Shown in pieces: positions 325 through 61,205 of a stretch of DNA of 64,000 nt; the stretch's first letter is position 1; the number at the start of each line of letters is the position of its first letter. Source of the DNA: Escherichia coli O157:H7 (GTDB lineage: Bacteria > Pseudomonadota > Gammaproteobacteria > Enterobacterales > Enterobacteriaceae); the NCBI RefSeq assembly GCF_013167455.1, contig NZ_CP038328.1, one strand, 5' to 3'. The translations under genes were made by a program, and so were the position numbers. The notes under the pieces are model-generated. The model did no database searches and had not been told where the DNA came from. It saw only the letters and a program-made list of their open reading frames with translations.

Positions 325-3128
<2,804 letters not shown>

Positions 3129-3132
<4 letters not shown>

Positions 3133-13828: not shown

Positions 13829-13831
13829 CCT

Positions 13832-15508
13832 TTACTCCTTGTCCTGAATTTCCGGCAGTTGCCAGAAATCGAAAAAATTAAACCAGTCGAGAGGCGACTG
13901 GAGCGCGTAATGTTCCAGACGCGCGGCGTAATGATCGATAGCGTTTTGCAGCGCCTGTTGGCGTTCGCCGCGCGGCAGCTGCAGTGGGTCGGCAAAGCTT
14001 TCGCAGTGAATATGCAGCTTGCCGTGCTGGCGCAGGGCGAAAATCAGATTCACCGGGCAGCGCAAAATAGAGGCGAGAATAAACGGCCCCTGTGGGAAAG
14101 GCGCAGGCTGGCCCATAAACGAACTCCAGCAGACGCGCCAGTCGCCGCCGCGTTGCGGGTTGACGGCGATGCGGTCACCGACAATCGCCACCCATTCGCC
14201 GTTATCCAGCTTCTCTTTCAGCAGGATGGCGGTTTCTGGGCCGATATCTGTTACCGGCATCAGGTTAATGCCTGCCTGAGGAGCCATCTCCTGCATTATC
14301 TGTTTAAAGCGTTGGGCGTTTTCGCTAAACACCAGCGCGTTAATGGTTTTGTAGCCCTGAATTTTTGCCAGCGCCCGGCACACTTCCACATCGCCAAGAT
14401 GCGAGGCCAGCAGCAATTTGCCGCGCGGATCGCGGACGTCAAGCGCTGCTTCTGCGCCTGGCGCAAACAGCACATCACGCCCTGGTTGTAGCTCGCCGCG
14501 CCAGCTGGCGATTTTGTCGAGCATGGCATTACCGAAACGTAGAAAGTGCTGATAGCTGTTGAGTTTTGCCGCCTGTGGTTGATGCTGTCGTACACGGGCG
14601 AGCCAGTCTTGCGACGCTTTGCGCGCACGAGAAGCAGTGAGCCAGTAGACGCCCACCACCGGGTAAAGCAGCGCGCTAAACGCCGTTCTTCCCAGCAGAC
14701 GCCAGACCAGCAGCATCAGGCGCATTCCCCATAATCCTTTCACTTCACTCTGCCGCGCCCAGTGGCAGGAAGAGCGGCGCATCAGCAGTGAAGGAATACG
14801 CGGCAACATGCCGAAAAACAGACGCGTGTGCATGAGCGAGATGCGGACGTTATCTTTCAGGGCATCAAAATGCGAAAGCCCGTCCAGTGGATAGGTGACG
14901 CGGGTCGGCACGAAATAGCTGGTATTTCCCTGCCAGTAGAGGCGCACCATCACTTCGGTGTCGAAATCCATCCGCTTGCCGATGGTGGCGTGTTTTGCCA
15001 GTTGCAGCGTTGGCGCAACCGGATAAACGCGAAAACCGCACATGCTGTCTTTCAGTTGCAGGGAGAGCGTTTCGATCCATACCCAGACGTGGGTGACCCA
15101 GCGCCCGTAAAGCCGTGAGCGGGGGATGGAGTCATCGTAAATTGGCTGGCCGGAGATCAGTGCCGCAGGTTGTTGTTCAGCGAGAGCCAGCAGTTTAGGG
15201 ATATCTTCAATCGCGTGCTGACCGTCAGCATCCACCTGCACCGCATGGCTGAACCCTGCGTCTGCCGCTGCCTGTAAGCCACGCATCACCGCCGCGCCTT
15301 TGCCTGCGTTTTCTGCCAGGCGAATTAAGGTCACGCCAGGCTGTTCGGCAAGCAGACTGTCCAGTTGCTGTTGTGTGGTGGCATCGCTGCCGTCATCCAC
15401 CACAATACAGGGCAGATTAAATGGCTTAAGACGCGCCAGCACGCCCGGCATCATCGCGCCGTGGTTGTAGCAGGGTATCAACACGCAGGGAGAAAAGTTT
15501 ACCGACAT
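13832..15508 (-). CDS. apeJ: Bifunctional family-2 glycosyltransferase / acyltransferase
   Basis: 558 aa; N-terminal GT2 motif VVDDGSD, followed by a membrane segment and a C-terminal acyltransferase-like domain. Confidence 0.7.
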   Translation of the reverse strand: MSVNFSPCVLIPCYNHGAMMPGVLARLKPFNLPCIVVDDGSDATTQQQLDSLLAEQPGVTLIRLAENAGKGAAVMRGLQAAADAGFSHAVQVDADGQHAIEDIPKLLALAEQQPAALISGQPIYDDSIPRSRLYGRWVTHVWVWIETLSLQLKDSMCGFRVYPVAPTLQLAKHATIGKRMDFDTEVMVRLYWQGNTSYFVPTRVTYPLDGLSHFDALKDNVRISLMHTRLFFGMLPRIPSLLMRRSSCHWARQSEVKGLWGMRLMLLVWRLLGRTAFSALLYPVVGVYWLTASRARKASQDWLARVRQHQPQAAKLNSYQHFLRFGNAMLDKIASWRGELQPGRDVLFAPGAEAALDVRDPRGKLLLASHLGDVEVCRALAKIQGYKTINALVFSENAQRFKQIMQEMAPQAGINLMPVTDIGPETAILLKEKLDNGEWVAIVGDRIAVNPQRGGDWRVCWSSFMGQPAPFPQGPFILASILRCPVNLIFALRQHGKLHIHCESFADPLQLPRGERQQALQNAIDHYAARLEHYALQSPLDWFNFFDFWQLPEIQDKE

Positions 15509-15852
15509 AGGCGGATCTTCCCGCTACTGGCGGTGTGGCGGGCGTCACCGTCGTGACGCTGATAGCTAAAGCTCAGAATCTGGCGTTCTTCCTGCCAGTT
15601 AAGCGCGAGCGTGACGCGGTTTTCCGGCAGCAACGGAGACTGGAATTTTATGTTCTGAATGGAGTGAAAACGCCAGCCAGGCGCGAGCAGATTGAGCGCG
15701 TAGCTCATCGCCCAGTCGATTTGCGCAACTCCTGGGAGTAATGGTTGCACGGCAAAATGACCGCGAAACCAGAACAGATCCGCCCTGAGATGCAGAACAA
15801 TTTCAAGGTGATTCGTTTGTGCCTGATGGCGCTCGATTTCATGGGGCTTCAT
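15499..15852 (-). CDS. apeI: Hotdog-fold dehydratase (second DH subunit)
   Basis: Start set at the ATG at 15852, which has an AGGAG ribosome-binding site 9 nt upstream, giving 117 aa. The ORF track extends it to 15882. Confidence 0.65.
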   Translation of the reverse strand: MKPHEIERHQAQTNHLEIVLHLRADLFWFRGHFAVQPLLPGVAQIDWAMSYALNLLAPGWRFHSIQNIKFQSPLLPENRVTLALNWQEERQILSFSYQRHDGDARHTASSGKIRLCR

Positions 15853-17200
15853 GAAATAACTCCTGTAATTGCGCATAGACACGCTTGTTCATACTGTTTA
15901 CTGGCATTTCATCAATAACGCGCCAGTAACGCGGAATAGCAACTGGCTCCAGCGTCGGGCGCAGTAAACGCCGCCAGGTCATTTCCTGGCTATGCCCGCC
16001 GCCGTTCTGCCATTGCAGATGAGCTTCGTCATCCAGCACCAGCAAAACGCCTATGCTCTGACGCCCGCCGCGCGTAACGGGAACTGCCGCCGCCTCGCGA
16101 ATGCCGTCCAGCGCCAGTAGACGTTGTTCTACTTCCTGGAGTGAAATACGTTTTTCTTCAATCTTAACGATGCGCCCACGACGCCCCATCAGATGGAACT
16201 GACCATCTTCGCTAAACTGTAAGATATCGTCGAGTAACATGCCGTTATCTTCCGCTATCAGCGGTGAAAAGAGGCGAAAGGCATCGCCTTCGGCCTGGAA
16301 CTGCATACCTGGGAGGGGTAGCCAGCGGCGTTGCTCTTGTTCGCGGTAGCGCCAGGCGATGACGCCAGTTTCCGTGCTGCCGTAGATTTCATCAGGCCAG
16401 ACGCGCAGCCAGCTCGCGGTATGTTGTACATCCTGCCACGGCAGCTCACCGCCAGCAGAGAGAAGCACCTGAACGGGTGGCGGAGAAAGCTGGGTATCCA
16501 GGCGCTTCAAAAATGCCGGGCTGCTGATGAAGATATAGCGATGCTGATGACTCAACGCGGCAAACTGTTCGACATACCAGAGCATGGCGGCGTGCAGCGG
16601 TAATCCCAACGCCATGGGCAGGAAAACGCGAAAAGTCAGGCCGTACAAATGCTGCGGCAATACGGAACCGACGACACGACAACCCGCCAGACGTGCGCCT
16701 AATCGTTCAGCCAGCAGTTCTGCTTCACGATCCAGCAAATGAACAGGTTTAATCGCCCGTTTCGGCTGTCCCGTGGAACCGGAGGTAAACAGCTCGATAA
16801 AAGCCTCTGGCGCTATAGCGGCAAAGGTGAAGGATTGTGTCGCGATTTGTGGAGAACTTGCTACCAACAGCAATGAACCTTGCCAGTTAAGTTCGCTGTC
16901 GCTAAGCACACCATCAAAAAGTTCACGTTGCTCGTTAAGCTGGATAACACGGTTATGCCCCGGAAGCACCGGCGTTTTTCCGGCGTGTAGCGTGGCGAGC
17001 AGGGCAACGATAAACAGATAGCTGTTCTCAAAGCACAGCGCCCAGCGTTCACCCGGCTGTTGCTGCAAGCGGCAGATAAGTTGCGCGACATCGTGACGCA
17101 AATCGCCCAGCGTCCAGGTACTTTCGTTCAGCCACGCAATGGGTGTGTCATCAGGGCGTGGCGCAGTCAGCCAGCGTGCAAGCGGTAAGGTCTGCTTCAT
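15839..17200 (-). CDS. apeH: AMP-dependent synthetase/ligase (adenylating starter-unit ligase, acyl-ACP synthetase-like)
   Basis: AMP-binding motif TSGSTGQPK; start placed at the ATG at 17200, which forms an ATGA overlap with the upstream gene's stop, giving 453 aa. Confidence 0.8.
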   Translation of the reverse strand: MKQTLPLARWLTAPRPDDTPIAWLNESTWTLGDLRHDVAQLICRLQQQPGERWALCFENSYLFIVALLATLHAGKTPVLPGHNRVIQLNEQRELFDGVLSDSELNWQGSLLLVASSPQIATQSFTFAAIAPEAFIELFTSGSTGQPKRAIKPVHLLDREAELLAERLGARLAGCRVVGSVLPQHLYGLTFRVFLPMALGLPLHAAMLWYVEQFAALSHQHRYIFISSPAFLKRLDTQLSPPPVQVLLSAGGELPWQDVQHTASWLRVWPDEIYGSTETGVIAWRYREQEQRRWLPLPGMQFQAEGDAFRLFSPLIAEDNGMLLDDILQFSEDGQFHLMGRRGRIVKIEEKRISLQEVEQRLLALDGIREAAAVPVTRGGRQSIGVLLVLDDEAHLQWQNGGGHSQEMTWRRLLRPTLEPVAIPRYWRVIDEMPVNSMNKRVYAQLQELFHEAP

Positions 17201-17778
17201 GCGCGATCTCTTTTCATCACCTGACGGCGCAGCAGCCATTCACCAGCCATTAACGTCCCCATCAACAAATAAGCAATCATGCCGTTCCAGGCGGTCCATA
17301 ACGACATATCGGCATAAAGCGCGGTAAAGAGGGCAATTCCACCGTTAATGATGAAAAAGCCGCACCAGATTTGCGTGACGTGGCGGGTATAGCGCACGCC
17401 CTTTTCCGGGAGGTCTGGCTCCTGCAACCGCGCCAGCCGCTCAACTATCGGCATTGCCGACCACAGCGAACCGCCAAAAACCGCCAGCATGACCGCGTTA
17501 ACCACTACCGGGTAAAACAGCAGTAGCTGGTGCGTTTTCAACATAAAGCTGGCGACACATAATGCGATGCCCACGACAGCGACGAGTTGCGTGACGGCTT
17601 GTAAAGGCCCCGCCTGGCGACGGGTCTGGCGCAGACGCAACAAAAGCAGCAACGCCATTAGCGGTAACAGCCAGTGCAGGCCGTTATGCGCTAAGCCAAA
17701 CCAAATCACAAACGGCCAGGCGAGCAGCAATAATCCAGTCAGCAGCTTAATCATCGGTAGCGAGCGAATGCCCGACAT
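17197..17778 (-). CDS. apeG: Integral membrane protein of the APE cluster
   Basis: 193 aa with about 5 predicted transmembrane helices. Confidence 0.6.
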   Translation of the reverse strand: MSGIRSLPMIKLLTGLLLLAWPFVIWFGLAHNGLHWLLPLMALLLLLRLRQTRRQAGPLQAVTQLVAVVGIALCVASFMLKTHQLLLFYPVVVNAVMLAVFGGSLWSAMPIVERLARLQEPDLPEKGVRYTRHVTQIWCGFFIINGGIALFTALYADMSLWTAWNGMIAYLLMGTLMAGEWLLRRQVMKRDRA

Positions 17779-17782
17779 CAGA

Positions 17783-18034
17783 TCAGGCTTCTTGTAGCAG
17801 GCGTTCTACAGCCTCGACGACATCCTGGACTGTACGCACTGCTTTAAACTCTTCCGGCTTGATTTTCTTACCGGTTTTCTTTTGCAGGTGCACAATCATG
17901 TCAACGGCGTCGATGCTGTCCAGTTCCAGATCTTCGTACAGGCGCGTTTCAGGTTTGATGTCCTGCGGATCGATTTCAAACAGCTTAACCAGCAGGGCTG
18001 AGACTTCCTGATAGACGGTTTGTTGTTCTGTCAT
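17783..18034 (-). CDS. apeF: Acyl carrier protein
   Basis: 83 aa; phosphopantetheine attachment motif LELDSIDAVDM; GAGGAA ribosome-binding site upstream. Confidence 0.85.
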   Translation of the reverse strand: MTEQQTVYQEVSALLVKLFEIDPQDIKPETRLYEDLELDSIDAVDMIVHLQKKTGKKIKPEEFKAVRTVQDVVEAVERLLQEA

Positions 18035-18045
18035 GATGGCTTTCC

Positions 18046-18303
18046 TCAGGCACGTTGCGCAGCAATGAAAGAGGCCAGAGTGGCGACGGAGAAAAAGTGC
18101 TGACGCATCTCTTCGCTTTCCGCAGAGAGCACGATGCCGTACTCATTTTTTACTGCCAGTCCCAGTTCCAGGGCATCGATAGAGTCCAGCCCTAAACCGT
18201 CGCCAAACAGCGGCGCGTCGGTATCGATATCATCAGGCGTCAACTCGTCCAGATTGAGGGTGCTGATGATGAGGTTTTTAATTTCCAGATAAAGCGCTTG
18301 CAT
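18046..18303 (-). CDS. apeE: Acyl carrier protein
   Basis: 85 aa; motif LGLDSIDALEL; AGGA ribosome-binding site upstream. Confidence 0.85.
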   Translation of the reverse strand: MQALYLEIKNLIISTLNLDELTPDDIDTDAPLFGDGLGLDSIDALELGLAVKNEYGIVLSAESEEMRQHFFSVATLASFIAAQRA

Positions 18304-19099
18304 TATTTATTCCTGAGAGAGGTAAACAACCTTGTTGTAATTGAAGCAAAAGATGCCGGTTTAACTGCCTTGCTGCCAGCGCCGGTTCTTGTGAAGTTGC
18401 ATCGTAAAATTTATTGATTTCAACCCGACCATGGACTGCAACCGTAAAAAACGGCCGGTCAGGTGGAACGTCATACCATTTACTTTGTTTATCCAGCAGA
18501 TGCTCGCTACAGCCGATTGTCACGATGCGTAAATCGCTGGCGCAGCGCACGGCAATATTCGCCGCCCCGCGCTGCAGCGTCATTTTTTCACCGGGCTTCG
18601 TTCGTGTGCCTTCGGGGAAAATCAGGATAGTGTCACCCTGTGCCAGTCGCTGTTGGCAGCGGGGTAACAGAGTTTCAGCTTCGCTGTTGATTAAATAATC
18701 TGTCGCCCGCACGACGCCGCCAAGAAAAGGATTTTTTAACAGCGCGCTTTTCACCAGGCAGTCAGTTTCTGGCATGACTGACGCCAGCAGCACGTAATCG
18801 ATCAGCGTGGGATGATTGGCTACGACGAGGCAACCGCGTTCCTGATGTAAGATTTCAGCGCCATCAATACGATAATCCAGTACGCCAAGCCCTTTCGCGA
18901 CAGTTAAAAACAGGCGAAAACTGGCGGCAATGCTGCGACGCGCCAAACGACGGCGGCGGGAAGTATCCCACACCAAAACTAACAATATGTTAAACCACAC
19001 GACAGAAAGCAGCAGGCCGCCGAGACCAAACAGGGCAAAACATAACCCGGTCATGACCAGTCGCCAGGTCCACTCCAGACGTGACATCAGCTTACTCAT
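18278..19099 (-). CDS. apeD: Lysophospholipid (PlsC-type) acyltransferase
   Basis: N-terminal membrane anchor and acyltransferase-sized body; start placed at the ATG at 19099 (ATGA coupling with the upstream stop), giving 273 aa. Confidence 0.7.
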   Translation of the reverse strand: MSKLMSRLEWTWRLVMTGLCFALFGLGGLLLSVVWFNILLVLVWDTSRRRRLARRSIAASFRLFLTVAKGLGVLDYRIDGAEILHQERGCLVVANHPTLIDYVLLASVMPETDCLVKSALLKNPFLGGVVRATDYLINSEAETLLPRCQQRLAQGDTILIFPEGTRTKPGEKMTLQRGAANIAVRCASDLRIVTIGCSEHLLDKQSKWYDVPPDRPFFTVAVHGRVEINKFYDATSQEPALAARQLNRHLLLQLQQGCLPLSGINNASALSGN

Positions 19100-19818
19100 C
19101 TGTGGCTCCAGCGCCATTGCACGCGCTCGCCAGGCAGTGAAAATGTGTCTACATTTTGTAAATAGTGCTGTAAAAACAACATGCTTTGCGGCAGTGTTGT
19201 TTCATTGCCCGCAATGGCTGACTGCGTTTCACATTGCCAGTCATCGCCAGCTTCAATCACCAGCGCGACGGCGTACGGCCAGGTCGGCATTTCTGATGGC
19301 AGTTGTGGGTGATAAAACTCGGGCAGGAAACCGTCAAAATCGACCATCAGCACGCGCTGGTATCCCGCTTGTAGCAGGCTAAGCACTTCACACAAACCTT
19401 GCTGGAAACTATCGCGACCAGCCGAAAGCGATGACGAAACGCTCGGCTGTTTGGCCGCAATGGTCAGGTTACCCACGGAAGAGTTGTGTACGGAGAGCGC
19501 GAAGTCCGTCGGAGAAAGCGCCTGTTCGGTTGCCAGTGCATGAACAATGCGGTAATTGCGCTCCAGTTCGCCATGACGACTGGTATACAAAACGGCGTCT
19601 GGTTGATGGCGGCGTAGCATTGCCAGACCGCATTCAACAGCCAGTTTGCTCCCGGAGCTGAGGCGGCGGGCGGTCATCATTGGCAGTTCACTTAATTTTG
19701 CCAACGGTGCTGTCGGGTCAATTGCCTGAGGCTGACGTGACCACTCCTGCCATTGCAGCGTTTCACTAAGTCCAGGCGCTCTTGCCTGCCAGTCGAGAAT
19801 GTTTAATGCAAATTTCAT
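19096..19818 (-). CDS. apeC: KS-like protein lacking the active-site Cys (chain-length-factor-like KS partner)
   Basis: Ketosynthase-like by cluster context, but no Cys/His/His triad is visible. Start ambiguous: ATG at 19818 (240 aa) or TTG at 19842 (248 aa). Confidence 0.6.
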   Translation of the reverse strand: MKFALNILDWQARAPGLSETLQWQEWSRQPQAIDPTAPLAKLSELPMMTARRLSSGSKLAVECGLAMLRRHQPDAVLYTSRHGELERNYRIVHALATEQALSPTDFALSVHNSSVGNLTIAAKQPSVSSSLSAGRDSFQQGLCEVLSLLQAGYQRVLMVDFDGFLPEFYHPQLPSEMPTWPYAVALVIEAGDDWQCETQSAIAGNETTLPQSMLFLQHYLQNVDTFSLPGERVQWRWSHR

Positions 19819-19858
19819 CAACGCGCGCCCGCGGTAAACCAAAATTATTAAGTGACGA

Positions 19859-20926
19859 TTATTTCTTTTGGCATATCAAAAGTGTATGCCCAACGCCTAA
19901 ATTATCGTGGCGCTCTGCTACCTGGAATCCTGCTTTATTCAGATAGTCGTAAAATTTCTCTGCACTATAGAAACGGCTGTTACCGTTTGCCATGCAGGTA
20001 AAATAAAGTGAGGACGCGTTCAGGCTAAACGATGCTGCTTCAAACCGCTGCGCATCCCAGAACAACTCCATGATGCAAACTTTTGCGCCAGGCTTCATTA
20101 CGCTGGCAATTTTGCTGAGTATGCTAATTATTTGTTCGGGTGAAAAACAGTCTAAAAATTGGCTCATCCACCAGATATCAGCCTCGCCCGGTAATGGGGC
20201 ATCGCTTAGCATATCCACCGCATGGAAATCTATGCGATCAGAAAAACCTGCATTCGCGATATTTTCTTTCGCTAGTACGATTTGTTGTGGCAGATCTAAT
20301 AACGTAACGGCGATGTTTTCATTGTATTTGCAGCAACGCAAAGCCCACTTACCCGTATTGCCGCCTACATCGTACAATGTTGTGGGGTTGTTGGCGAATA
20401 CATAAGGCAGTGCGGCGTTAAATGCGCCATCTGAATAGTAATGATCAAACGCAAACCAGCTTTCACGAGCGGCGTCTGGTAATTGCGAAAGTGCCGGATA
20501 TATCGTCGACCAGTCGCCAAATACTTTTAACCCGGAAGGTTTTCCTTCATTGAGTGAATCGGCGAGGAAGAAGAGCCCCTGGTAACAGACATCCTGGGTG
20601 AAATCCATATTCACGCGAGTCATAGTGTCATGCAGGAGGTAATGACCGATTTTCGCCAGGTAATAAATTCCCTCTTTACAGGTAATAATTCGCCCGCTTA
20701 AGCCCATATCTAACAGAACGCTGGTAGCATATTCGTTGATATGGCTATGTTCGGTGATATCAGCCAGCGTTGCGCCATGTTTGCCTTGCCGATCCAGATA
20801 TGAAAGTACACCCGCATTACGTAGGCAGAGTGCTGTTTGAAAAAGCATAGGGGCAAAGGCAATGCGTTGAGCTTCGGTAATCGCATCCAGTGCGCTAAGA
20901 GAATCCTGTTCGTACATGTTGGGCAC
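19859..20926 (-). CDS. apeB: Class I SAM-dependent O-methyltransferase
   Basis: 355 aa; SAM-binding motif LYDVGGNTG; first gene of the 17-gene block. Confidence 0.8.
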   Translation of the reverse strand: MPNMYEQDSLSALDAITEAQRIAFAPMLFQTALCLRNAGVLSYLDRQGKHGATLADITEHSHINEYATSVLLDMGLSGRIITCKEGIYYLAKIGHYLLHDTMTRVNMDFTQDVCYQGLFFLADSLNEGKPSGLKVFGDWSTIYPALSQLPDAARESWFAFDHYYSDGAFNAALPYVFANNPTTLYDVGGNTGKWALRCCKYNENIAVTLLDLPQQIVLAKENIANAGFSDRIDFHAVDMLSDAPLPGEADIWWMSQFLDCFSPEQIISILSKIASVMKPGAKVCIMELFWDAQRFEAASFSLNASSLYFTCMANGNSRFYSAEKFYDYLNKAGFQVAERHDNLGVGHTLLICQKK

Positions 20927-20985
20927 AACCTGTTAAGAGGGAATTAAATTATTATCGGACCGCAACGGCCCGACTTTAGGAAGAA

Positions 20986-21375
20986 TTATAAATCTGCGCC
21001 CGCTGACAAATTCAGTTGAATATCTTTGTCGAGATTGCGGACCCAGCGATTGTAGTTTTTATGAATTTGTCCGCCTGACGCTTGTAGGTTCTGGCTATTT
21101 TCATAATTGATATCGTAGCTGGATGCCGTGTAGTTAATGCGTATTTCCGCTGAATGATCGCGTGACTGTTGACGTGCTTTAATTATGCCTTGTCCGGCTT
21201 CGGACATAATCCATTTGCGTTCAACGCCAGCTTTCAGAATCGCTTTTTTCACTTGTTCCTGGGTATGACCAGCGCTGACGGTTGAGTGAACCTGATCAAT
21301 TGGCGCAGTACGCGCGCAACCTGCTAAAGCACCCACAACAGCAATAGCCGCAAACCATTTCATGTAATGTCTCAT
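20986..21375 (-). CDS. Small secreted lipoprotein, function unknown (possibly the first gene of the APE operon)
   Basis: 129 aa; signal peptide with lipobox LAGC; GGGG ribosome-binding site; sits between the AT-rich region and the methyltransferase gene. Confidence 0.55.
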   Translation of the reverse strand: MRHYMKWFAAIAVVGALAGCARTAPIDQVHSTVSAGHTQEQVKKAILKAGVERKWIMSEAGQGIIKARQQSRDHSAEIRINYTASSYDINYENSQNLQASGGQIHKNYNRWVRNLDKDIQLNLSAGADL

Positions 21376-22935: not shown

Positions 22936-24153
22936 ATGCCCGAACCCGTAGCCGAACCCGCGCTAAACGGATTGCGCCTGAATTTGCGCATTCTCTCCAT
23001 TGTCATGTTTAACTTCGCCAGCTACCTCACCATCGGGTTGCCGCTCGCTGTATTACCGGGCTATGTCCATGATGTGATGGGCTTTAGCGCTTTCTGGGCA
23101 GGATTGGTTATCAGCCTGCAATATTTCGCCACCTTGCTGAGCCGTCCTCATGCCGGACGTTACGCCGATTTGCTGGGCCCCAAAAAGATTGTCGTCTTCG
23201 GTTTATGCGGCTGCTTTTTGAGCGGTCTGGGATATCTGACGGCAGGATTAACCGCCAGTCTGCCCGTCATCAGCCTGTTATTACTTTGCCTGGGACGCGT
23301 CATCCTTGGGATTGGGCAAAGTTTTGCCGGAACGGGATCGACCCTGTGGGGTGTTGGCGTGGTTGGCTCGCTGCATATCGGGCGGGTGATTTCGTGGAAC
23401 GGCATTGTCACTTACGGGGCGATGGCGATGGGTGCGCCGTTAGGCGTCGTGTTTTATCACTGGGGCGGCTTGCAGGCGTTAGCGTTAATTATTATGGGCG
23501 TGGCGCTGGTGGCCATTTTGTTGGCGATCCCGCGTCCGACGGTAAAAGCCAGTAAAGGCAAACCGCTGCCGTTTCGCGCGGTGCTTGGGCGCGTCTGGCT
23601 GTACGGTATGGCGCTGGCACTGGCTTCCGCCGGATTTGGCGTCATCGCCACCTTTATCACGCTGTTTTATGACGTTAAAGGTTGGGGCGGTGCGGCTTTC
23701 GCGCTGACGCTGTTTAGCTGTGCGTTTGTCGGTACGCGTTTGTTATTCCCTAACGGCATTAACCGTATCGGCGGCTTAAACGTAGCGATGATTTGCTTTA
23801 GCGTTGAGATAATCGGCCTGCTACTGGTTGGCGTGGCGACTATGCCGTGGATGGCGAAAATCGGCGTCTTACTGGCGGGGGCCGGGTTTTCGCTGGTGTT
23901 CCCGGCATTGGGTGTAGTGGCGGTAAAAGCGGTTCCGCAGCAAAATCAGGGGGCGGCGCTGGCAACCTACACCGTATTTATGGATTTATCGCTTGGCGTG
24001 ACCGGACCACTGGCTGGGCTGGTGATGAGTTGGGCGGGCGTACCGGTGATTTATCTGGCGGCGGCGGGACTGGTCGCAATCGCGTTATTACTGACGTGGC
24101 GATTAAAAAAACGGCCTCCGGAACACGTCCCTGAGGCCGCCTCATCATCTTAA
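22936..24153 (+). CDS. yhhS: MFS transporter YhhS
   Basis: Start at MPEPVAEPALNG gives 405 aa; 12-TM MFS topology; divergent from yhhT. Confidence 0.88.
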   Translation: MPEPVAEPALNGLRLNLRILSIVMFNFASYLTIGLPLAVLPGYVHDVMGFSAFWAGLVISLQYFATLLSRPHAGRYADLLGPKKIVVFGLCGCFLSGLGYLTAGLTASLPVISLLLLCLGRVILGIGQSFAGTGSTLWGVGVVGSLHIGRVISWNGIVTYGAMAMGAPLGVVFYHWGGLQALALIIMGVALVAILLAIPRPTVKASKGKPLPFRAVLGRVWLYGMALALASAGFGVIATFITLFYDVKGWGGAAFALTLFSCAFVGTRLLFPNGINRIGGLNVAMICFSVEIIGLLLVGVATMPWMAKIGVLLAGAGFSLVFPALGVVAVKAVPQQNQGAALATYTVFMDLSLGVTGPLAGLVMSWAGVPVIYLAAAGLVAIALLLTWRLKKRPPEHVPEAASSS

Positions 24154-24156
24154 AAC

Positions 24157-24714
24157 TTACTGAATAACCAGCGTATTAATGATGTTTTCTGCGGTGGTCT
24201 GCGCTTTTTGCTGATCGTCAGCTGGCAGAGTAATTTGCATGGTCAGCAGTTGATTACCCACGTTACCCAGAATAACGGAAGAGTACGCCGTCTGGCCTTT
24301 CGCGGAGATAATACTGTCTAACTGCTGCATTTTGTGACCTTTCAGCTCAATGGCTTTATTGGTGACCACTTGCAGCTGTGGATCGCGGCTACGTTGCTGA
24401 TCTTCCAGACGCTTCGCCAGCACCGCCAGATCTTCTTTCGGATCATCGCCCATGATGACGATGACTGCTTTCTGCCCGGTGGCGTCGGACCAGACATGCA
24501 TGTTATTGGCCTGCGTTCCCAGCTTACCGCTCTGGTCGGTCATATCCGCTGGCAGCGAGAAACTTAACTTGCCATCAAGCAGGTTGACGGGATTCCCGGT
24601 AGCGTTACTTTCCGCGACCGAACCCTGCGCCGTAGCGTTAGTGTCTTTATCATCACAGGCCGCAAGCCCCATAACCAGCAGGCCAATTCCGACATATTTA
24701 ACCAGATTGCGCAT
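24157..24714 (-). CDS. dcrB: Periplasmic lipoprotein DcrB
   Basis: Start at [20 protein letters not shown] gives 185 aa with lipobox LAAC. Confidence 0.85.
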
Positions 24715-29058: not shown

Positions 29059-29418
29059 ATGAGCAAACCACCTCTTTTCTTTATTGTTATCATTGGCTTA
29101 ATCATCGTCGCCGCATCGTTTCGTTTTATGCAACAGCGACGGGAAAAAGCTGATAATGATATGGCACCACTCCAGCAAAAGCTGGTGTTGGTGAGCAACA
29201 AGCGGGAAAAACCGATTAACGATCGCCGTTCGCGCCAGCAGGAAGTGACTCCGGCAGGCACCAGTATGCGCTATGAGGCAAGCTTCAAACCGCAAAGCGG
29301 AGGAATGGAGCAGACGTTTCGCCTCGACGCCCAGCAGTACCACGCCCTGACAGTGGGCGATAAAGGTACGCTGAGCTATAAAGGAACGCGCTTTGTTAGC
29401 TTTGTTGGCGAACAATAA
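29059..29418 (+). CDS. yhhM: DUF2500 membrane-anchored protein YhhM
   Basis: 119 aa with a single N-terminal transmembrane helix. Confidence 0.8.
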   Translation: MSKPPLFFIVIIGLIIVAASFRFMQQRREKADNDMAPLQQKLVLVSNKREKPINDRRSRQQEVTPAGTSMRYEASFKPQSGGMEQTFRLDAQQYHALTVGDKGTLSYKGTRFVSFVGEQ

Positions 29419-29420
29419 GG

Positions 29421-29690
29421 TTATTTTTTAACTTTAAATTTCTTCTGCCAGACCAGCAGTTCAAACACGCCGAAAAGGAAAATCCGCACCTTTTCGGCGG
29501 TGGTCATCTGCGGGCCATCTTTCGGTAAAGTGGATTTCAATAGCGCCAGTTGCATACCATGCATCAGCACGGTAAAAATCAGCGCCACGTTAACGAAAAT
29601 ATTCAGCGGGCGCGGGAAGGGATGCACCAGGTTGAGGATTAAAAATCCCCAAACACAGAGCATTAACAAACGACCAATATTAATCAGCAT
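29421..29690 (-). CDS. yhhL: Small membrane protein YhhL (DUF1145)
   Basis: Start at the internal ATG (MLINIGRLLML...) gives 89 aa with 2 to 3 TM helices; overlaps rsmD by 11 bp. Confidence 0.75.
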   Translation of the reverse strand: MLINIGRLLMLCVWGFLILNLVHPFPRPLNIFVNVALIFTVLMHGMQLALLKSTLPKDGPQMTTAEKVRIFLFGVFELLVWQKKFKVKK

Positions 29691-35013: not shown

Positions 35014-36117
35014 ATGAACATAAAGGGTAAAGCGTTACTGGCAGGATGTATCGCGCTGGCATTCAGCAATATGGCTCTGGCAGAAGATATTAAAGTCGCG
35101 GTCGTGGGCGCAATGTCCGGTCCGGTTGCGCAGTACGGTGACCAGGAGTTTACCGGCGCAGAGCAGGCGGTTGCGGATATCAACGCTAAAGGCGGCATTA
35201 AAGGCAACAAACTGCAAATCGTAAAATATGACGATGCCTGTGACCCGAAACAGGCGGTTGCGGTGGCGAACAAAGTCGTTAACGACGGCATTAAATACGT
35301 GATTGGTCACCTCTGTTCTTCATCAACGCAGCCTGCGTCTGACATCTACGAAGACGAAGGCATTTTAATGATCACCCCAGCGGCAACCGCGCCGGAGCTG
35401 ACCGCCCGTGGCTATCAGCTGATCCTGCGCACCACCGGCCTGGACTCCGACCAGGGGCCGACGGCGGCGAAATATATTCTTGAGAAAGTGAAACCGCAGC
35501 GTATTGCTATCGTTCACGACAAACAGCAATACGGCGAAGGTCTGGCACGAGCGGTGCAGGACGGCCTGAAGAAAGGCAATGCTAACGTGGTGTTCTTTGA
35601 TGGTATCACCGCCGGGGAAAAAGATTTCTCAACGCTGGTGGCGCGTCTGAAAAAAGAGAATATCGACTTCGTTTACTACGGCGGTTATCACCCGGAAATG
35701 GGGCAAATCCTGCGTCAGGCACGCGCGGCAGGGTTGAAAACTCAGTTTATGGGGCCGGAAGGCGTGGCTAACGTCTCGCTGTCTAACATTGCGGGCGAAT
35801 CAGCGGAAGGGCTGCTGGTGACCAAGCCGAAGAACTACGATCAGGTTCCGGCGAACAAACCCATTGTTGATGCGATCAAAGCGAAAAAACAGGACCCAAG
35901 CGGCGCATTCGTTTGGACCACCTACGCCGCGCTGCAATCTTTGCAGGCGGGCCTGAATCAGTCTGACGATCCGGCTGAAATCGCCAAATACCTGAAAGCG
36001 AACTCCGTGGATACCGTAATGGGACCGCTGACCTGGGATGAGAAAGGCGATCTGAAAGGCTTTGAGTTCGGTGTGTTTGACTGGCACGCCAACGGCACGG
36101 CAACCGATGCGAAGTAA
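35014..36117 (+). CDS. livJ: Leu/Ile/Val-binding periplasmic protein LivJ
   Basis: Start at [11 protein letters not shown] gives 367 aa with signal peptide; the sequence is a paralogue of the livK product downstream. Confidence 0.93.
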
Positions 36118-36137
36118 CAGATAGATAAATGAAAATG

Positions 36138-36169
36138 CCCGATGCGCTGAACTGCCATCGGGTTTTTTT
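36138..36169 (+). terminator. livJ intrinsic terminator
   Basis: Stem CCCGATG/CATCGGG with an 11-nt loop followed by TTTTTTT. Confidence 0.8.
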
Positions 36170-36219
36170 GTGTTTGTCGAAATGGTTGTAGAAAGATTAA
36201 ACAATCCAGGATATGCTTA

Positions 36220-36242
36220 ATGTACGGTGACATACCGTACAT
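36220..36242 (+). promoter_or_regulatory. Palindromic operator upstream of the toxin-antitoxin operon
   Basis: Perfect dyad ATGTACGGT-GACAT-ACCGTACAT directly upstream of a TATTAT -10-like hexamer and the antitoxin ribosome-binding site. Confidence 0.55.
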
Positions 36243-36266
36243 ATTATACGGAGCAGGAGAGTTCAC

Positions 36267-36533
36267 ATGTCTGCTGTTAAAAAGCAGCGTATCGATCTGC
36301 GTTTAACTGACGATGACAAAAGTATGATTGAGGAAGCGGCAGCGATATCTAATCAGTCCGTCAGCCAATTTATGTTGAACAGCGCTTCGCAGCGGGCTGC
36401 GGAAGTGATTGAACAGCATCGGCGGGTGATCCTCAATGAGGAATCCTGGACGCGGGTGATGGATGCGCTGAGTAATCCACCGTCACCAGGTGAAAAGCTA
36501 AAACGTGCGGCAAAACGTCTTCAGGGAATGTAA
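36267..36533 (+). CDS. DUF1778-family antitoxin (TacA/AtaR/ItaR-like) of a GNAT toxin-antitoxin module
   Basis: 88 aa, 6 nt upstream of a GNAT toxin gene; small charged protein typical of DUF1778 antitoxins. Confidence 0.8.
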   Translation: MSAVKKQRIDLRLTDDDKSMIEEAAAISNQSVSQFMLNSASQRAAEVIEQHRRVILNEESWTRVMDALSNPPSPGEKLKRAAKRLQGM

Positions 36534-36539
36534 TAATTT

Positions 36540-37067
36540 ATGGATGATCTGACGATAGAGATTCTGACCGATGATGCAGATTATGATCTACAGCGATTCG
36601 ACTGCGGCGAGGAAGCGTTAAATCTCTTTCTGACGACACATCTCGTTCGTCAACATCGCAACAAAATTCTGCGAGCGTATATCCTTTGTCGCAACACTCC
36701 AGAACGTCAGGTGCTGGGATATTACACATTATGCGGCAGTTGTTTTGAACGAGCCGCATTGCCCTCGAAATCGAAACAGAAAAAAATTCCCTACAAAAAT
36801 ATTCCCAGCGTTACTCTTGGGCGTCTGGCAATTGATCGTTCATTACAGGGGCAGGGATGGGGAGCAACACTGGTTGCTCATGCCATGAAAGTCGTCTGGT
36901 CAGCCTCTTTAGCGGTAGGTATTCACGGTCTTTTTGTCGAGGCGCTGAATGAAAAAGCCCATACGTTTTATAAATCGCTGGGCTTTATCCCTTTAGTCGG
37001 GGAAAACGAAAATGCGTTATTTTTCCCAACCAAATCCATTGAACTGCTTTTTACACAGAGCGATTAA
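36540..37067 (+). CDS. GNAT-fold acetyltransferase toxin (TacT/AtaT/ItaT-family tRNA-acetylating toxin)
   Basis: 175 aa; motifs FDCGEEALNLFL and LGRLAIDRSLQGQGWGATL are typical of aminoacyl-tRNA-acetylating GNAT toxins. Confidence 0.8.
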   Translation: MDDLTIEILTDDADYDLQRFDCGEEALNLFLTTHLVRQHRNKILRAYILCRNTPERQVLGYYTLCGSCFERAALPSKSKQKKIPYKNIPSVTLGRLAIDRSLQGQGWGATLVAHAMKVVWSASLAVGIHGLFVEALNEKAHTFYKSLGFIPLVGENENALFFPTKSIELLFTQSD

Positions 37068-37447
37068 CGCTTCTCCCAGCCGCCCTGCTGTGCCGTAAAT
37101 CCCAGTGCCTGCATAAACGCCGTCATCACACCGCGATCTTCCACGCCTGCATCCGCCATCCACCAGCATGAAACGCCAGGATTGTTACGCAAAACCTCTT
37201 CCAGCAGATATTGCCCCACACCGCGACGTCGAGTGACTTCCCGCACGCGCAGGGAATCCAGTGCCCCCTCGGTGCCGCTTAAGGTTACCCGCACGGCAGC
37301 AAGCAGGCGCTCGTTAAAACGCGCGGCGTAGATGCGGTGGTTATCGTCAACCTGTAAAGAGGAAGGGGAATACTCCGGCCAGATCTTTTGCAGGTCAATC
37401 CGGTCCTGGTCGCTAAATTTTTCTAATCGAATGATGGTCAGCTTCAT
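37064..37447 (-). CDS. panZ: PanD maturation factor PanZ (PanM/YhhK; GNAT fold)
   Basis: 127 aa matching PanZ; its 3' end overlaps the toxin gene's 3' end by 4 bp (convergent). Confidence 0.85.
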   Translation of the reverse strand: MKLTIIRLEKFSDQDRIDLQKIWPEYSPSSLQVDDNHRIYAARFNERLLAAVRVTLSGTEGALDSLRVREVTRRRGVGQYLLEEVLRNNPGVSCWWMADAGVEDRGVMTAFMQALGFTAQQGGWEKR

Positions 37448-42825: not shown

Positions 42826-43572
42826 ATGCATTATGCCGTTGTTGTCATGCTTGAACTGCTTTGCTGTATTCACGCTTACCGTACCGGACAAGAGCGGTAC
42901 TGGATTTTTATCATTTTCTGTTTTCCGGTGATTGGCTGCGTGGCGTATTTCGTCATAGTGATGCTGCCTGAAACGGGCGCTGACCGTCACGGGCATACTT
43001 TGCTGATGCGCCTGCAGGACAAACTCAACCCTGAGCGCCACCTGCGCAAATTAACCGAAGAACTGGCGATTGCCGAGACGAATCAAAACCATTATGCGTT
43101 GGCTAATGAACTGGCGCGTCTGGGGCGTTATCACGAAGCTGTTCCCCATTATCAGCAGGCGTTAAGCGGGATATTCGCCCATGAAGCGGCAATGATGCTA
43201 AGCCTGGCGCAGGCACAGTTTGCTATTCAGGAGTTCGCCGCCTGTCAGCAGACGCTGGAAGATGTGATGCGTTATAACCCTGATTTTCAGTCGGCAGACG
43301 GGCATTTGTTATTTGCCAGAACGTTAGCCGCACAAGAAAAATACGCTGATGCGGAAAGCGAGTTTGAAGTATTGATTTCTTATTACCCCGGCCCGCAGGC
43401 GCGTATTTACTATGCGGAAATGTTGGCGAAAATGAGTCGGTTACGTGAAGCCAACGAGCAGTATGTTGCCGTGGTTGATACGGCTAAACGCTCAAGACCT
43501 CATTATAGAAAACACCACCGGGAATGGATTAAGACCGCCAATGAGCGGCTGAAGCAGAGTGTGGTGCAATGA
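42826..43572 (+). CDS. Hypothetical membrane-anchored protein: N-terminal PLD-N-like transmembrane hairpin plus C-terminal TPR-like helical domain
   Basis: 248-aa ORF with an AAAGG ribosome-binding site; hydrophobic N-terminus (YWIFIIFCFPVIGCVAYFVIVMLPE); helical repeat C-terminus; its own terminator at 43643..43680. Confidence 0.55.
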   Translation: MHYAVVVMLELLCCIHAYRTGQERYWIFIIFCFPVIGCVAYFVIVMLPETGADRHGHTLLMRLQDKLNPERHLRKLTEELAIAETNQNHYALANELARLGRYHEAVPHYQQALSGIFAHEAAMMLSLAQAQFAIQEFAACQQTLEDVMRYNPDFQSADGHLLFARTLAAQEKYADAESEFEVLISYYPGPQARIYYAEMLAKMSRLREANEQYVAVVDTAKRSRPHYRKHHREWIKTANERLKQSVVQ

Positions 43573-47076: not shown

Positions 47077-48147
47077 ATGGCAGGACTGAAATTACAGGCA
47101 GTAACCAAAAGCTGGGATGGCAAAACCCAGGTGATTAAACCGCTGACCCTTGATGTGGCGGATGGCGAATTTATCGTGATGGTCGGGCCGTCAGGCTGCG
47201 GGAAATCGACGCTGCTGCGCATGGTTGCCGGGCTGGAGCGGGTGACGGAAGGCGATATCTGTATCAACGACCAGCGGGTGACCGAAATGGAGCCGAAAGA
47301 TCGCGGGATTGCGATGGTGTTCCAGAACTACGCGCTTTATCCGCATATGAGTGTTGAAGAAAACATGGCGTGGGGGCTGAAAATTCGCGGCATGGGCAAG
47401 CAGCAAATTGCCGAGCGCGTTAAAGAGGCGGCGCGCATTCTGGAACTGGACGGTCTGCTTAAGCGCCGCCCGCGCGAGCTTTCCGGCGGTCAGCGTCAGC
47501 GTGTGGCGATGGGCCGGGCGATTGTGCGCGATCCGGCGGTGTTCCTGTTTGATGAGCCACTCTCTAACCTCGATGCCAAGCTGCGCGTACAGATGCGTCT
47601 TGAACTGCAACAGCTGCACCGTCGCCTGAAAACGACTTCACTCTACGTTACTCACGATCAGGTTGAGGCGATGACCCTCGCCCAGCGAGTAATGGTGATG
47701 AACGGCGGCGTTGCCGAACAGATTGGCACACCAGTTGAAGTCTACGAAAAGCCCGCCAGCCTGTTTGTGGCGAGTTTTATTGGCAGCCCGGCGATGAATC
47801 TGCTGACAGGCCGCGTGAATAACGAAGGCACGCACTTCGAGCTGGACGGCGGCATTGCGCTGCCGCTAAACGGTGGCTACCGTCAGTATGCAGGGCGTAA
47901 AATGACTCTCGGCATTCGCCCGGAACATATCGCGCTAAGCTCGCAGGCAGAAGGCGGCGTGCCGCTGGTGATGGACACGCTGGAGATCCTCGGCGCAGAT
48001 AACCTGGCGCACGGACGCTGGGGCGAACAGAAGCTGGTGGTACGGCTGGCGCATCAGGAGCGCCCGACGGCAGGCAGCACGCTGTGGCTGCATCTGCCGG
48101 AAAATCAGCTACATCTTTTTGATGGTGAAACAGGACAACGAGTATGA
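47077..48147 (+). CDS. ugpC: sn-glycerol-3-phosphate ABC ATPase UgpC
   Basis: Start at [13 protein letters not shown], the ATG directly after the ugpE stop, gives 356 aa; Walker [10 protein letters not shown]. Confidence 0.93.
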
Positions 48148-48887
48148 GTAACTGGCCTTATCCCCGCATCGTCGCCCACCGTGGCGGCGGTAAACTGGCC
48201 CCGGAAAACACCCTGGCGGCAATCGACGTCGGGGCAAAATACGGTCATAAGATGATCGAATTTGACGCGAAGTTGTCGAAAGATGGCGAAATCTTCCTGC
48301 TCCATGACGACAATCTCGAACGTACCAGCAACGGCTGGGGCGTCGCGGGTGAACTGAACTGGCAGGATTTACTACGTGTGGATGCAGGCAGTTGGTACGG
48401 CAAAGCGTTTAAAGGTGAGCCGCTGCCGTTGCTTTCGCAGGTGGCGGAACGCTGTCGCGAACATGGGATGATGGCGAATATCGAAATCAAACCCACCACT
48501 GGCACTGGGCCATTAACGGGCAAAATGGTGGCGCTGGCGGCACGCGAGCTGTGGGCCGGTATGACGCCGCCGCTACTGTCATCGTTTGAGATTGATGCTT
48601 TAGAAGCCGCACAACAGGCAGTACCAGAACTGCCGCGCGGTTTGTTGCTGGATGAGTGGCGCGACGACTGGCGAGAACTGACCGCGCGGCTGGGCTGCGT
48701 CTCTATTCATCTCAATCATAAGTTGCTCGATAAAGCGCGAGTGATGCAGTTGAAAGACGCCGGATTACGGATTCTGGTTTATACCGTCAATAAACCCCAG
48801 CGCGCGGCAGAGTTGCTGCGCTGGGGCGTGGATTGCATCTGTACCGATGCGATTGATGTGATTGGTCCGAACTTTACGGCCCAATAG
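48144..48887 (+). CDS. ugpQ: Glycerophosphodiester phosphodiesterase UgpQ
   Basis: 247 aa; GDPD-family N-terminal motif VAHRGGG. Confidence 0.93.
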
Positions 48888-49314
48888 TTTTCAACGGTAT
48901 ATCAGGCTGCGGCGTGCCGGGCTGATTCAGCATGTCGCCGTTTCTCCTCTCCGGCAACATATGCTGCTGATTCAACGAACTATCCGGATTACGGTTGCTG
49001 TTTAACATCCCGCCATTGGTGTTGGGCAGCATTTGCTGCCGGGCGGGATTTCGCTCCCCCGGCTGTGACTGCAACACCCGCTGAGAATTATTGTTTATCT
49101 GGTTTTCTAAATGCTGTTGTTGCAACTGAGTTTGCGTTTTCAGTTGCTGATTCAGCATCCCTTTTTGCTGGATTTGCTGCGTTTGCATCTGGGTTTGCAT
49201 CCGCTGCTGACTGGGGATCTGATACCCCGGCTGGTTAGGGTTGTTCAGAGTATTAATGGGCTGTGCAAAGCCGACAAACGGCAGGAGTGCCGTAAGAATC
49301 AGAAGTCGTTTCAT
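48874..49314 (-). CDS. yhhA: Secreted Gln-rich protein YhhA (DUF2756)
   Basis: 146 aa with signal peptide and a Q-rich low-complexity body; its 3' end overlaps ugpQ by 14 bp (convergent). Confidence 0.8.
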
Positions 49315-59080: not shown

Positions 59081-61205
59081 ATGGAAAAGCACGCAGCTGA
59101 ATTGCTTTTACAGCGGATGTTAGGAAATACCACCGCTACTTTCAGGGAAGGGCAATGGGAAGCCATAGACGCGGTGGTGAACCAACGGCGAAAACTGCTG
59201 GTTGTCCAACGCACTGGCTGGGGGAAAAGTGCTGTGTACTTCATCGCCAGTAAAATCTTCCGCGATCGCGGCGCTGGCCCGACAATTATCATCTCTCCTT
59301 TGCTTGCCCTGATGCGTAACCAGGTTGCCGCCGCTGAACGGTTAGGTATTACGGCTGAAACGTTGAATTCTACAAACAGAGAAGAATGGCAGCGCATTAG
59401 CGATAAGTTGCTGCAAGGTGAGGTCGATTGCTTGCTGGTTTCCCCGGAACGTTTGGCAAACCAGGACTTTATCGAAACGGTTTTATATCCTATAGCCGAT
59501 CATATTGGCTTGCTTGTGGTCGACGAGGCGCACTGCATCTCTGATTGGGGCCACGATTTTCGCCCGGATTACCGACGTATATTAGATATTTTGCGCAACT
59601 ACCTGCGAATACCCCTGTTCTGGGTACAACCGCGACAGCGAATAACCGTGTCGTTGAGGATATCCGTCAGCAATTGGGTGACATTGTGATTCAGCGTGGA
59701 ACGCTGGCTCGCGAAAGTTTGGCGCTTGATGCCTTAGTCTTAGGTGAACACTCATCCCGTCTGGCATGGTTAGCAACGGTTATCCCTCAGTTTTCCAAAT
59801 CGGGAATTGTTTATACCCTGACTACTCGCGATGCCGAACTTGTCGCCGAGTGGTTAAGGAAAAATGGTATCAGTGCATTTGCTTACTACAGCGGCGTGAC
59901 TTGTGAAGGCGCGGAAGATTCTAATACTGCCAGGGAATATCTGGAGCAGGCGTTGCTGGCAAATAAAATTAAAGTGCTGGTTGCGACAACGGCGCTGGGA
60001 ATGGGCTTTGACAAACCGGATTTGGGGTTTGTTATTCATTACCAGATGCCAGGTTCGATAGTTGGTTACTACTAACAGGTGGGGCGTGCCGGTCGCGGTA
60101 TCGATTCTGCTGTTGGCATACTGCTTTGCGGCAGTGAAGACCGTGCTATTCATAAATTCTTCCGTGAAAGCGCCTTTCCTGCGGAGGCGCAAATTCATGA
60201 AATACTCAACGTACTTAGCGTGAATGACGGTCTTACCTTACGAGGCATTGAACAACGGACGAATCTCCGTTATGGGCAAATAGAAAAAGCACTGAAATTA
60301 TTGGTAGCTGAAAATCCATCGCCTGTGGTGTATACCGAGAAATTATGGCGCAGAACAATTGTCAGTTTTTCTCCTGACCATGAACGAATTAACCATTTGA
60401 TGAATCAGAGAAAAAGTGAGCTGGCAGACGTTGAAAGCTATATCACGACCAAGGAGTGCAAAATGCAATTTCTGCGCCGCGCACTCGATGAGCCAGGTGC
60501 CGAACATTGTGGTAAATGTAGCAGTTGTCTTCAGCATCCGTTGTTGTCGCCCGACATTGATAGCGGCTTACTCCATGCGGCAAACTTATTTATTAAACAC
60601 GCTGACCTGTCATTAAATCTCAATAAACAGGTGGCAGCTGGGGCTTTTACGCAATACGGATTTAAAGGGAACTTGCCTGCGAGTTTACAAGGATCTACGG
60701 GGCGAATCCTTTCTCGTTGGGGATATTCCGGGTGGGGAAAGCAGGTAGCACAGGAGAAAAAAACGGGGCGATTCAGTGATGAACTGGTGGAGGCATGTGC
60801 GGAAATGGTTCGCCAACGCTGGAATCCGCATCCTGAACCAACCTGGGTATGCTGCGTTCCTTCATTAAAGCACCTCGACCTGGTTCCTGATTTTGAAAGC
60901 ACCTCGACCTGGTTCCTGATTTTGCCCGGCGACTGGCGGCGAAACTTGGCTTACCTTTTATTGATGCCATTGAAAAAGTCGTGGACAATCCACCGCAGAA
61001 AATGCAGCAAAACCGTTTCCACCAGTGTCAAAATCTCGACGGGGCGTTTGTGATTACCCCTCCTTTGATGCCTGGTCCGGCGTTGCTGGTTGACGATATC
61101 GTGGATTCTGCATGGACGCTGACAGTTCTAACAGCACTGTTACGCCAGGCAGGTTGCCCGACGGTTTATCCTCTTGCCCTTGCTTCTACCTCGGTAAAAA
61201 ATTGA
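59081..61205 (+). pseudogene. Disrupted RecQ-family DNA helicase fused to a C-terminal ComF-like phosphoribosyltransferase domain
   Basis: Three ORF-track fragments belong to one gene: Walker A GWGKS and RecQ motifs [19 protein letters not shown] and GYY*QVGRAGRG, a Cys-rich RQC-like region, and a PRTase motif ALLVDDIVDSAWT at the C-terminus. Lesions: frameshift near 59597..59612, in-frame TAA at 60073..60075, 29-bp tandem duplication at 60896..60924. Reconstructed ancestral product about 698 aa. Confidence 0.75.
60867..60924 (+). repeat. Perfect 29-bp tandem duplication inside the RecQ-like gene
   Basis: AAAGCACCTCGACCTGGTTCCTGATTTTG occurs twice back to back (60867..60895 and 60896..60924); 29 is not a multiple of 3, so the reading frame shifts. 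Confidence 0.95.

Follow-up and report, generated by a model that had tools for sequence, protein, structure and literature searches.

We examined a 64,000-nucleotide stretch of DNA from Escherichia coli O157:H7 (contig NZ_CP038328.1 of assembly GCF_013167455.1; hereafter, the window), in which two pairs of convergent neighbouring genes overlap at their stop regions. At one junction, ataT, the toxin gene of the AtaR–AtaT type II toxin–antitoxin system (a GNAT toxin with a ribbon–helix–helix (RHH) antitoxin), meets panZ, which encodes the activator and regulator of PanD; at the other, ugpQ meets yhhA. Both overlaps are ordinary members of a described class in a compact stretch of chromosome, and one of the two pairs has already been catalogued. 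The simplest reading of the ataT–panZ junction is that the ataRT module is an old resident of this site, and the overlap is probably a structural arrangement rather than a dedicated regulatory device. The features of the ataRT locus are as follows.

35014–36117, plus strand: livJ coding sequence, the left flank of the module (RefSeq annotation of an identical O157:H7 genome; open reading frame list)
36129–36171: intrinsic terminator hairpin of livJ, GCCCGATG...CATCGGG followed by T7 (folding)
36220–36242: inverted repeat ATGTACGGT-GACAT-ACCGTACAT upstream of ataR (read from the sequence)
36267–36533, plus strand: ataR, ribbon–helix–helix antitoxin, 88 amino acids (RefSeq name ataR)
36540–37067, plus strand: ataT, GNAT acetyltransferase toxin, 175 amino acids (open reading frame list, RefSeq name and PDB match)
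37064–37067: TTAA, a shared double stop (ataT TAA at 37065–37067; panZ TAA as the complement of 37064–37066; sequence)
37064–37447, minus strand: panZ (= panM = yhhK), 127 amino acids (PDB 4cry/2k5t; NCBIfam NF033213, PanM equivalog)

Read directly, the plus strand at the end of ataT is GAT TAA, and 37064–37066 reverse-complemented is TAA; the palindrome TTAA supplies both stops, one per strand, and the overlap is 4 bp. The RefSeq coordinates of the identical O157:H7 genome (ataT, 36540–37067; panM, 37064–37447) match the open reading frame list. Together with those of the second pair, described below, these data bear out the initial annotation, which had reported convergent overlaps of 4 bp and 14 bp between a GNAT toxin gene and panZ and between ugpQ and yhhA; PDB and NCBIfam matches support all four gene identities, and the toxin is AtaT (E = 1e-117 against PDB 6gts/6ajm, residues 1–175). 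A suggestion that the two GNAT-like proteins AtaT and PanZ arose as paralogues through an inverted duplication was rejected (BLASTP E = 7.7). Across both junctions, the sole Rfam match was a spurious, sub-threshold small nucleolar RNA (23.7 bits against a cut-off of 60 bits). We found neither the ataT–panZ convergent overlap nor its conservation from Escherichia to Salmonella, despite changes of stop codon and of tail length, in the literature that we searched.

The toxin–antitoxin system is well characterized, and the module carries the names Z4833–Z4832 and ECs4308–ECs4307 in the AtaRT literature. The antitoxin gene is of the DUF1778/TacA type (a near-identical 88-amino-acid AtaR orthologue bears PF08681, TacA1) and lies 6 bp from ataT in the same operon. 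Upstream of it, the inverted repeat at 36220–36242, which is also kept in the orthologous spacer of Salmonella enterica subsp. salamae, is presumed from its sequence to be an AtaR operator that overlaps the promoter. The livJ hairpin folds on both strands (plus strand, dG −20.8, z −5.6; minus strand, dG −14.7, z −4.5) with an A/U-rich tail on each, and is a candidate bidirectional terminator. It sits within the segment in which ataRT-positive genomes differ from ataRT-negative ones: the former (window 36118–36266) have this dedicated hairpin and T7 directly after livJ, and the latter (locus coordinates 519–716 in the genome compared) have repetitive extragenic palindromic (REP) elements instead.

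In E. coli, ataRT is present at this site in 1,620 of 5,424 complete genomes (around 30%), and a 71-mer that spans the ataT–panZ junction is contiguous in at least 1,047. In the window, 1.8 kb surrounding the site is 100% identical to O157:H7 strains, and divergent E. coli alleles in which the toxin tail reads TPDD instead of TQSD have an identical junction. Genomes without the module have a 198-bp, REP-containing livJ–panZ spacer and no overlap. Homology between the filled and empty alleles ends directly after the livJ TAA and restarts at (GA)CGA-TTAA; between the REP spacer and the ataRT segment there is no residual homology, as neither local nor junction-anchored alignment outperformed shuffled sequences. 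The two alleles share only 3–5 bases beside the TTAA, which is not informative about a deletion scar, and the module borders show no mobility genes, repeats or duplications. Among ataRT-negative genomes, some have a small 'hypothetical protein' annotated within the livJ–panZ spacer, and E. coli EC-1639 carries the IS3-family element IS1397 within its REP-containing spacer (locus coordinates 976–2324).

This junction was seen at 8 loci, which represent 7 taxa. Besides E. coli, four Escherichia species (E. albertii, E. whittamii, E. marmotae and E. ruysiae) have the order livJ–ataR–ataT–panZ with the 4-bp overlap, which brings the number of species in this genus to five. In E. marmotae and E. 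ruysiae, AtaT has 170 amino acids (locus coordinates 2501–3013) owing to an internal five-residue deletion; this deletion converts SKQKKIPYKNIPS to SKQKNIPS and lies at a short direct repeat. In S. enterica subsp. salamae, the orthologous operon is intact and encodes an 89-amino-acid antitoxin and a 172-amino-acid toxin (locus coordinates 2229–3399, including panZ) in the context rpoH–livJ–toxin–antitoxin–panZ–livK, the same locus as in E. coli. There, the toxin gene (2501–3019) and panZ (3016–3399) also overlap by 4 bp, in this case as CTAG, with TAG for both stops, and the tail of the toxin is three codons shorter than that of E. coli AtaT. S. enterica retains a decayed ataRT remnant beside an intact panZ (panM at 2001–2384 and the remnant at about 2385–2750, in locus coordinates). 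The antitoxin of the remnant is 5′-truncated and keeps AtaR residues 29–88 at 80–82% identity; the toxin has frameshifts and an internal deletion of around 330 nt, and its last 13 codons, ...FYPTKSFEQLFA*, still finish in TTAA against panM. At these remnant loci, livJ is not within 2 kb, and a 764-amino-acid, lipoprotein-like open reading frame with no Pfam match lies beyond the remnant. REP-type spacers with no module are found in E. fergusonii, Citrobacter koseri, C. freundii, Enterobacter hormaechei and Leclercia.

Nucleotide and third-codon-position identities between O157 and S. salamae, gene by gene, are as follows.

livJ: nucleotide identity 84.5%, third-codon identity 62%
ataR: nucleotide identity 77.4%, third-codon identity 50%
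ataT: nucleotide identity 70.5%, third-codon identity 46%
panZ: nucleotide identity 75.5%, third-codon identity 48%
livK: nucleotide identity 83.1%, third-codon identity 60%

The divergence of ataRT thus equals or exceeds that of the flanking genes, and the module is therefore as old as its neighbours. The simplest reading is that ataRT is an old resident that predates the divergence of Escherichia and Salmonella and was then lost repeatedly; K-12-type strains most likely lost it. The initial annotation had attributed the overlap to an inserted module. The overlap does exist only where ataRT is present, but the idea of a recent insertion is unsupported, given that the junction recurs in other Escherichia and in Salmonella and that the module is at least as diverged as its flanks.

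Related modules occupy other positions elsewhere. KacAT of Klebsiella pneumoniae is of the same family (KacT is 69% identical to AtaT; PDB 5xun). It does not share the panZ junction: kacAT is flanked by a two-component sensor gene and a roxA-like gene, and 47 bp separate it from its convergent neighbour. Plasmid GNAT/RHH modules, again of the same family and 63–69% identical, are at other loci and have downstream spacers of 170–260 bp.

Overlaps of this kind are common. E. coli has 58 convergent overlaps of coding sequences, among which 4 bp (TTAA, CTAA, CTAG or TTAG) is a modal class (Lillo and Krakauer 2007, PMC2174442). With TTAA here and CTAG in S. salamae, ataT–panZ is a further example of this 4-bp double-stop class, from which it does not differ; as in any such pair, a terminator necessarily lies inside the coding sequence of the partner. 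In K-12, about 704 gene pairs are convergent (bioRxiv 10.64898/2026.03.23.713779). At a rate of 58/704, the chance of at least two overlaps among the seven convergent pairs of the window is P = 0.11, and two overlaps are therefore no more than expected by chance. The spacings of the seven pairs, four of which overlap or are no more than 3 bp apart, are as follows.

ugpQ/yhhA: −14 bp
ataT/panM: −4 bp
yhhM/yhhL: 2 bp (window 29418–29421)
yhhS/dcrB: 3 bp (window 24153–24157)
dprA/yhgN: 45 bp
tusA/zntA: 101 bp
ggt/DUF4225: about 733 bp

A catalogue of convergent excludons in MG1655 lists 165 cases, including yhhA–ugpQ, dcrB–yhhS and yhhL–yhhM (ExcludonFinder; PMC12288877). The catalogue covers K-12 only, and K-12 is without ataRT. 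For yhhA–ugpQ, which is the same gene pair with no structural difference, transcript overlap was recorded in at least 50% of 58 RNA-sequencing samples; what the catalogue documents is the overlap of transcripts, not a regulatory consequence.

The features of this second junction are as follows.

48144–48887, plus strand: ugpQ coding sequence (open reading frame list; RefSeq; NCBIfam equivalog)
48874–48887: ugpQ/yhhA coding-sequence overlap, 14 bp (open reading frame list, sequence and RefSeq)
48874–49314, minus strand: yhhA coding sequence (DUF2756), 146 amino acids (open reading frame list; RefSeq; NCBIfam PRK10350 over residues 1–146)

The locus is present in 5,420 of 5,424 E. coli genomes, and the 14-bp RefSeq annotation is identical in every genome that we inspected (O157, a K-12-like strain and a clinical isolate); the overlap is fixed in E. 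coli. UgpQ and YhhA match their NCBIfam equivalogs end to end. In other genera, the two genes are separated. The spacer is 50 bp in Salmonella (locus coordinates 1942–1991), where it holds a bidirectional terminator hairpin, AUAAAGGCGGCC...GGCCGCCUUUAUUAU, flanked by A- and U-tracts, and 23 bp in Klebsiella, where it holds a hairpin without such tracts. YhhA is 110 amino acids long in Salmonella, 131 in Klebsiella and 146 in E. coli, in which a C-terminal extension of around 35 residues, absent from the Salmonella and Klebsiella homologues, runs into ugpQ (window 48874–48980). Because these relatives have a spacer and a shorter YhhA, the overlap is a derived feature of Escherichia, and it would have arisen within this genus through loss of the spacer and extension of the YhhA C terminus.

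With no spacer in either pair in the window, there is no bidirectional terminator between the stops and, in the absence of intergenic DNA, each transcript must end inside the coding sequence of its partner. Complementary 3′ ends are therefore unavoidable when both partners are transcribed. Any complete mRNA contains its stop codon, and the two full-length mRNAs thus cover 37064–37067. The initial annotation had named transcript ends that lie before the overlap on both strands as evidence against coupling; such ends are impossible for functional mRNAs, and this observation therefore cannot refute it. A scan for consensus terminators at both junctions called none, and hairpins derived from folding remain as candidates. 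Four sites were considered.

36947–36986, minus strand: hairpin AAAGCCCAGCG...CGUAUGGGCUUU with UUCAUUC after it, within the ataT coding sequence, 78–117 nt past the panZ stop (dG −14.6, z −3.8)
37068–37270, plus strand: unstructured tract, C-rich and G-poor, that follows the ataT stop and is antisense to the 3′ half of panZ (C/G ratio of 1.9–2.5 in 78-nt windows)
48788–48827, minus strand: strong hairpin with UUUAUU after it, within the ugpQ coding sequence, about 47–86 nt past the yhhA stop (dG −24.5, z −4.2)
48905–48950, plus strand: weak hairpin with UUUCUCCUCU after it, within yhhA and beyond the ugpQ stop (dG −16.4, z 0.17)

The hairpin at 36947–36986 is a candidate intrinsic terminator for panZ, and panZ transcripts would probably end there or, failing that, at the livJ terminator (36129–36171). 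Every Escherichia allele has this hairpin, as does S. salamae; the arms, however, consist of conserved codons, and a plasmid homologue has part of the hairpin, so its conservation is not independent evidence for a terminator. Downstream of ataT, there is no hairpin or terminator (fold z +1.3; terminator scans). The lack of a hairpin together with the C-rich, G-poor tract suggests Rho-dependent termination of ataRT transcripts inside antisense panZ, with 37068–37270 as a candidate Rho-utilization region, and these transcripts would probably end within it. At the second junction, none of 200 shuffles folded as well as the hairpin at 48788–48827, which is a candidate yhhA terminator at which the yhhA transcript may end; the hairpin at 48905–48950 is a poor candidate for a ugpQ terminator.

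We consider it likely that the ataT–panZ junction is a passive structural arrangement in which antisense overlap is unavoidable but modest, and in which the overlap would, in our judgement, cause at most a modest mutual dampening. Two established mechanisms could act here: head-on collision of polymerases at convergent pairs (bioRxiv 10.1101/2022.10.23.513370) and RNase III cleavage of RNAs that overlap (PMC12288877). In a functional convergent excludon, ataRT derepressed by stress would send polymerase and antisense RNA into panZ, read-through from panZ would yield RNA antisense to the toxin portion of the ataRT message, and polymerase collision, together with digestion of the duplex by RNase III, would tie toxin–antitoxin activity to the PanZ-controlled synthesis of coenzyme A (CoA). 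Much of the architecture fits this proposal, in that orientation and the lack of a spacer guarantee complementary 3′ ends, no intrinsic terminator follows ataT, a candidate panZ terminator lies inside ataT, and both Escherichia and Salmonella have kept the arrangement. AtaT and PanZ both bind acetyl-CoA, as is generally known and as their PDB matches indicate. There are also precedents, as two K-12 toxin–antitoxin operons, relBE and yhaV(prlF), are in convergent excludons with ydfV and agaR, respectively, and relBE–ydfV shows inverse expression under four antibiotics (PMC12288877). Like ataRT, these are type II operons that face a convergent neighbour; they differ in toxin family and in neighbour, the partner of ataT being a conserved housekeeping regulator of CoA synthesis. 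The convergent pair mscL–arfA, which is also in the list of PMC12288877, has a 3′ transcript overlap for which a regulatory effect with experimental support has been reported (PMC10070815), unlike ataT–panZ. Against a functional excludon, type II systems are generally autorepressed, and the operator-like palindrome upstream of ataR agrees with this, so that convergent traffic would normally be low. In around 70% of E. coli, and also in E. fergusonii, Citrobacter, Enterobacter and Leclercia, panZ operates with no ataRT beside it, and in S. enterica panZ is intact beside a decayed ataRT, which shows that panZ is independent of it. The literature that we examined on AtaT, AtaT2 and the Klebsiella GNAT toxins makes no mention of panZ, panM or livJ. 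On balance, we regard a functional excludon as unlikely. Still less probable is the stronger proposal that the zero-spacer linkage of ataRT and panZ has been kept since before the split of Escherichia and Salmonella as a selected convergent-transcription switch. Some observations nevertheless weigh against a passive arrangement of an old, repeatedly lost module. The conservation of the panZ-side hairpin from Escherichia to Salmonella would fit a selected terminator. The 4-bp overlap has outlasted both the change from TTAA to CTAG and a change in tail length, which could reflect selection for a zero spacer or passive retention. Furthermore, the proposed order of events, with the module first present and later lost, depends on a small number of sampled genomes and on module-free outgroups (Citrobacter, Enterobacter, Leclercia and E. 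fergusonii).

Two further explanations concern the origin and the reality of the overlaps, rather than their function. If ataRT had been inserted recently next to panZ in the O157 lineage, the 4-bp overlap would be an accidental by-product; the variable presence of the module in E. coli, the abundance of related modules on plasmids and the (GA)CGA beside the TTAA in both alleles, a possible microhomology at the junction, are all compatible with this. What makes it very improbable is that it is already contradicted by the recurrence of the junction across five species of Escherichia and in two lineages of Salmonella. Moreover, ataRT is as diverged as panZ between O157 and S. salamae; the nearest plasmid homologues are just 63–69% identical; and the borders have neither mobility genes nor duplications. 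The marks of a recent islet (low divergence, restriction to a single lineage and mobility signatures at the borders) are thus lacking, and we retain the reading of an old resident. It is also conceivable that one reading frame of a pair ends earlier than annotated and that there is no true coding overlap. YhhA is of low complexity and rich in glutamine, and its last 35 or so residues are missing from the Salmonella and Klebsiella homologues, so that this tail may be dispensable. We give this the least credence of all, as the open reading frame lists contain no earlier in-frame stops, the same annotation recurs across genomes, the YhhA model matches residues 1–146, and structural constructs span all or nearly all of the other two proteins (AtaT, residues 1–175; PanZ crystal and NMR constructs 4cry/2k5t, residues 1–126 of 127).

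Elsewhere in the window, a long same-strand cluster of fatty-acid/polyketide-like genes (6347–21363) resembles an aryl-polyene-type biosynthetic cluster; it encodes ketoacyl-acyl carrier protein synthases, an ApeP-family dehydratase, an MMPL transporter, a LolA-like protein, acyl carrier proteins and a glycosyltransferase. A gene for a tetratricopeptide-repeat protein (42826–43572) lies between livF and ugpB. A RecQ-family helicase gene (59081–62407) is annotated as a pseudogene, with a frameshift and an internal stop, and overlaps the start of a DprA-like gene on the same strand by around 94 bp.

For annotation, the impact of these results is slight, as the existing annotation of both overlaps is correct and the class to which they belong is common and already described. 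For the family, our reading corrects the usual treatment of AtaRT as a pathogen-associated accessory module to that of an old chromosomal resident that stands stop-to-stop with panZ and has been repeatedly lost. Were the junction a selected switch after all, derepression of the toxin–antitoxin operon would lower panZ expression, and panZ read-through would act as an antisense RNA on the toxin half of the operon, which would add a hybrid, type I-like layer to a type II system. Such a switch would join an acetyl-CoA-consuming toxin operon to an acetyl-CoA-sensing regulator of CoA synthesis. The ataRT-positive, REP-spacer and decayed-remnant alleles form a natural set in which the effect of convergent transcription from a toxin–antitoxin operon on a housekeeping neighbour can be tested, and such a test would extend the precedent of relBE–ydfV.

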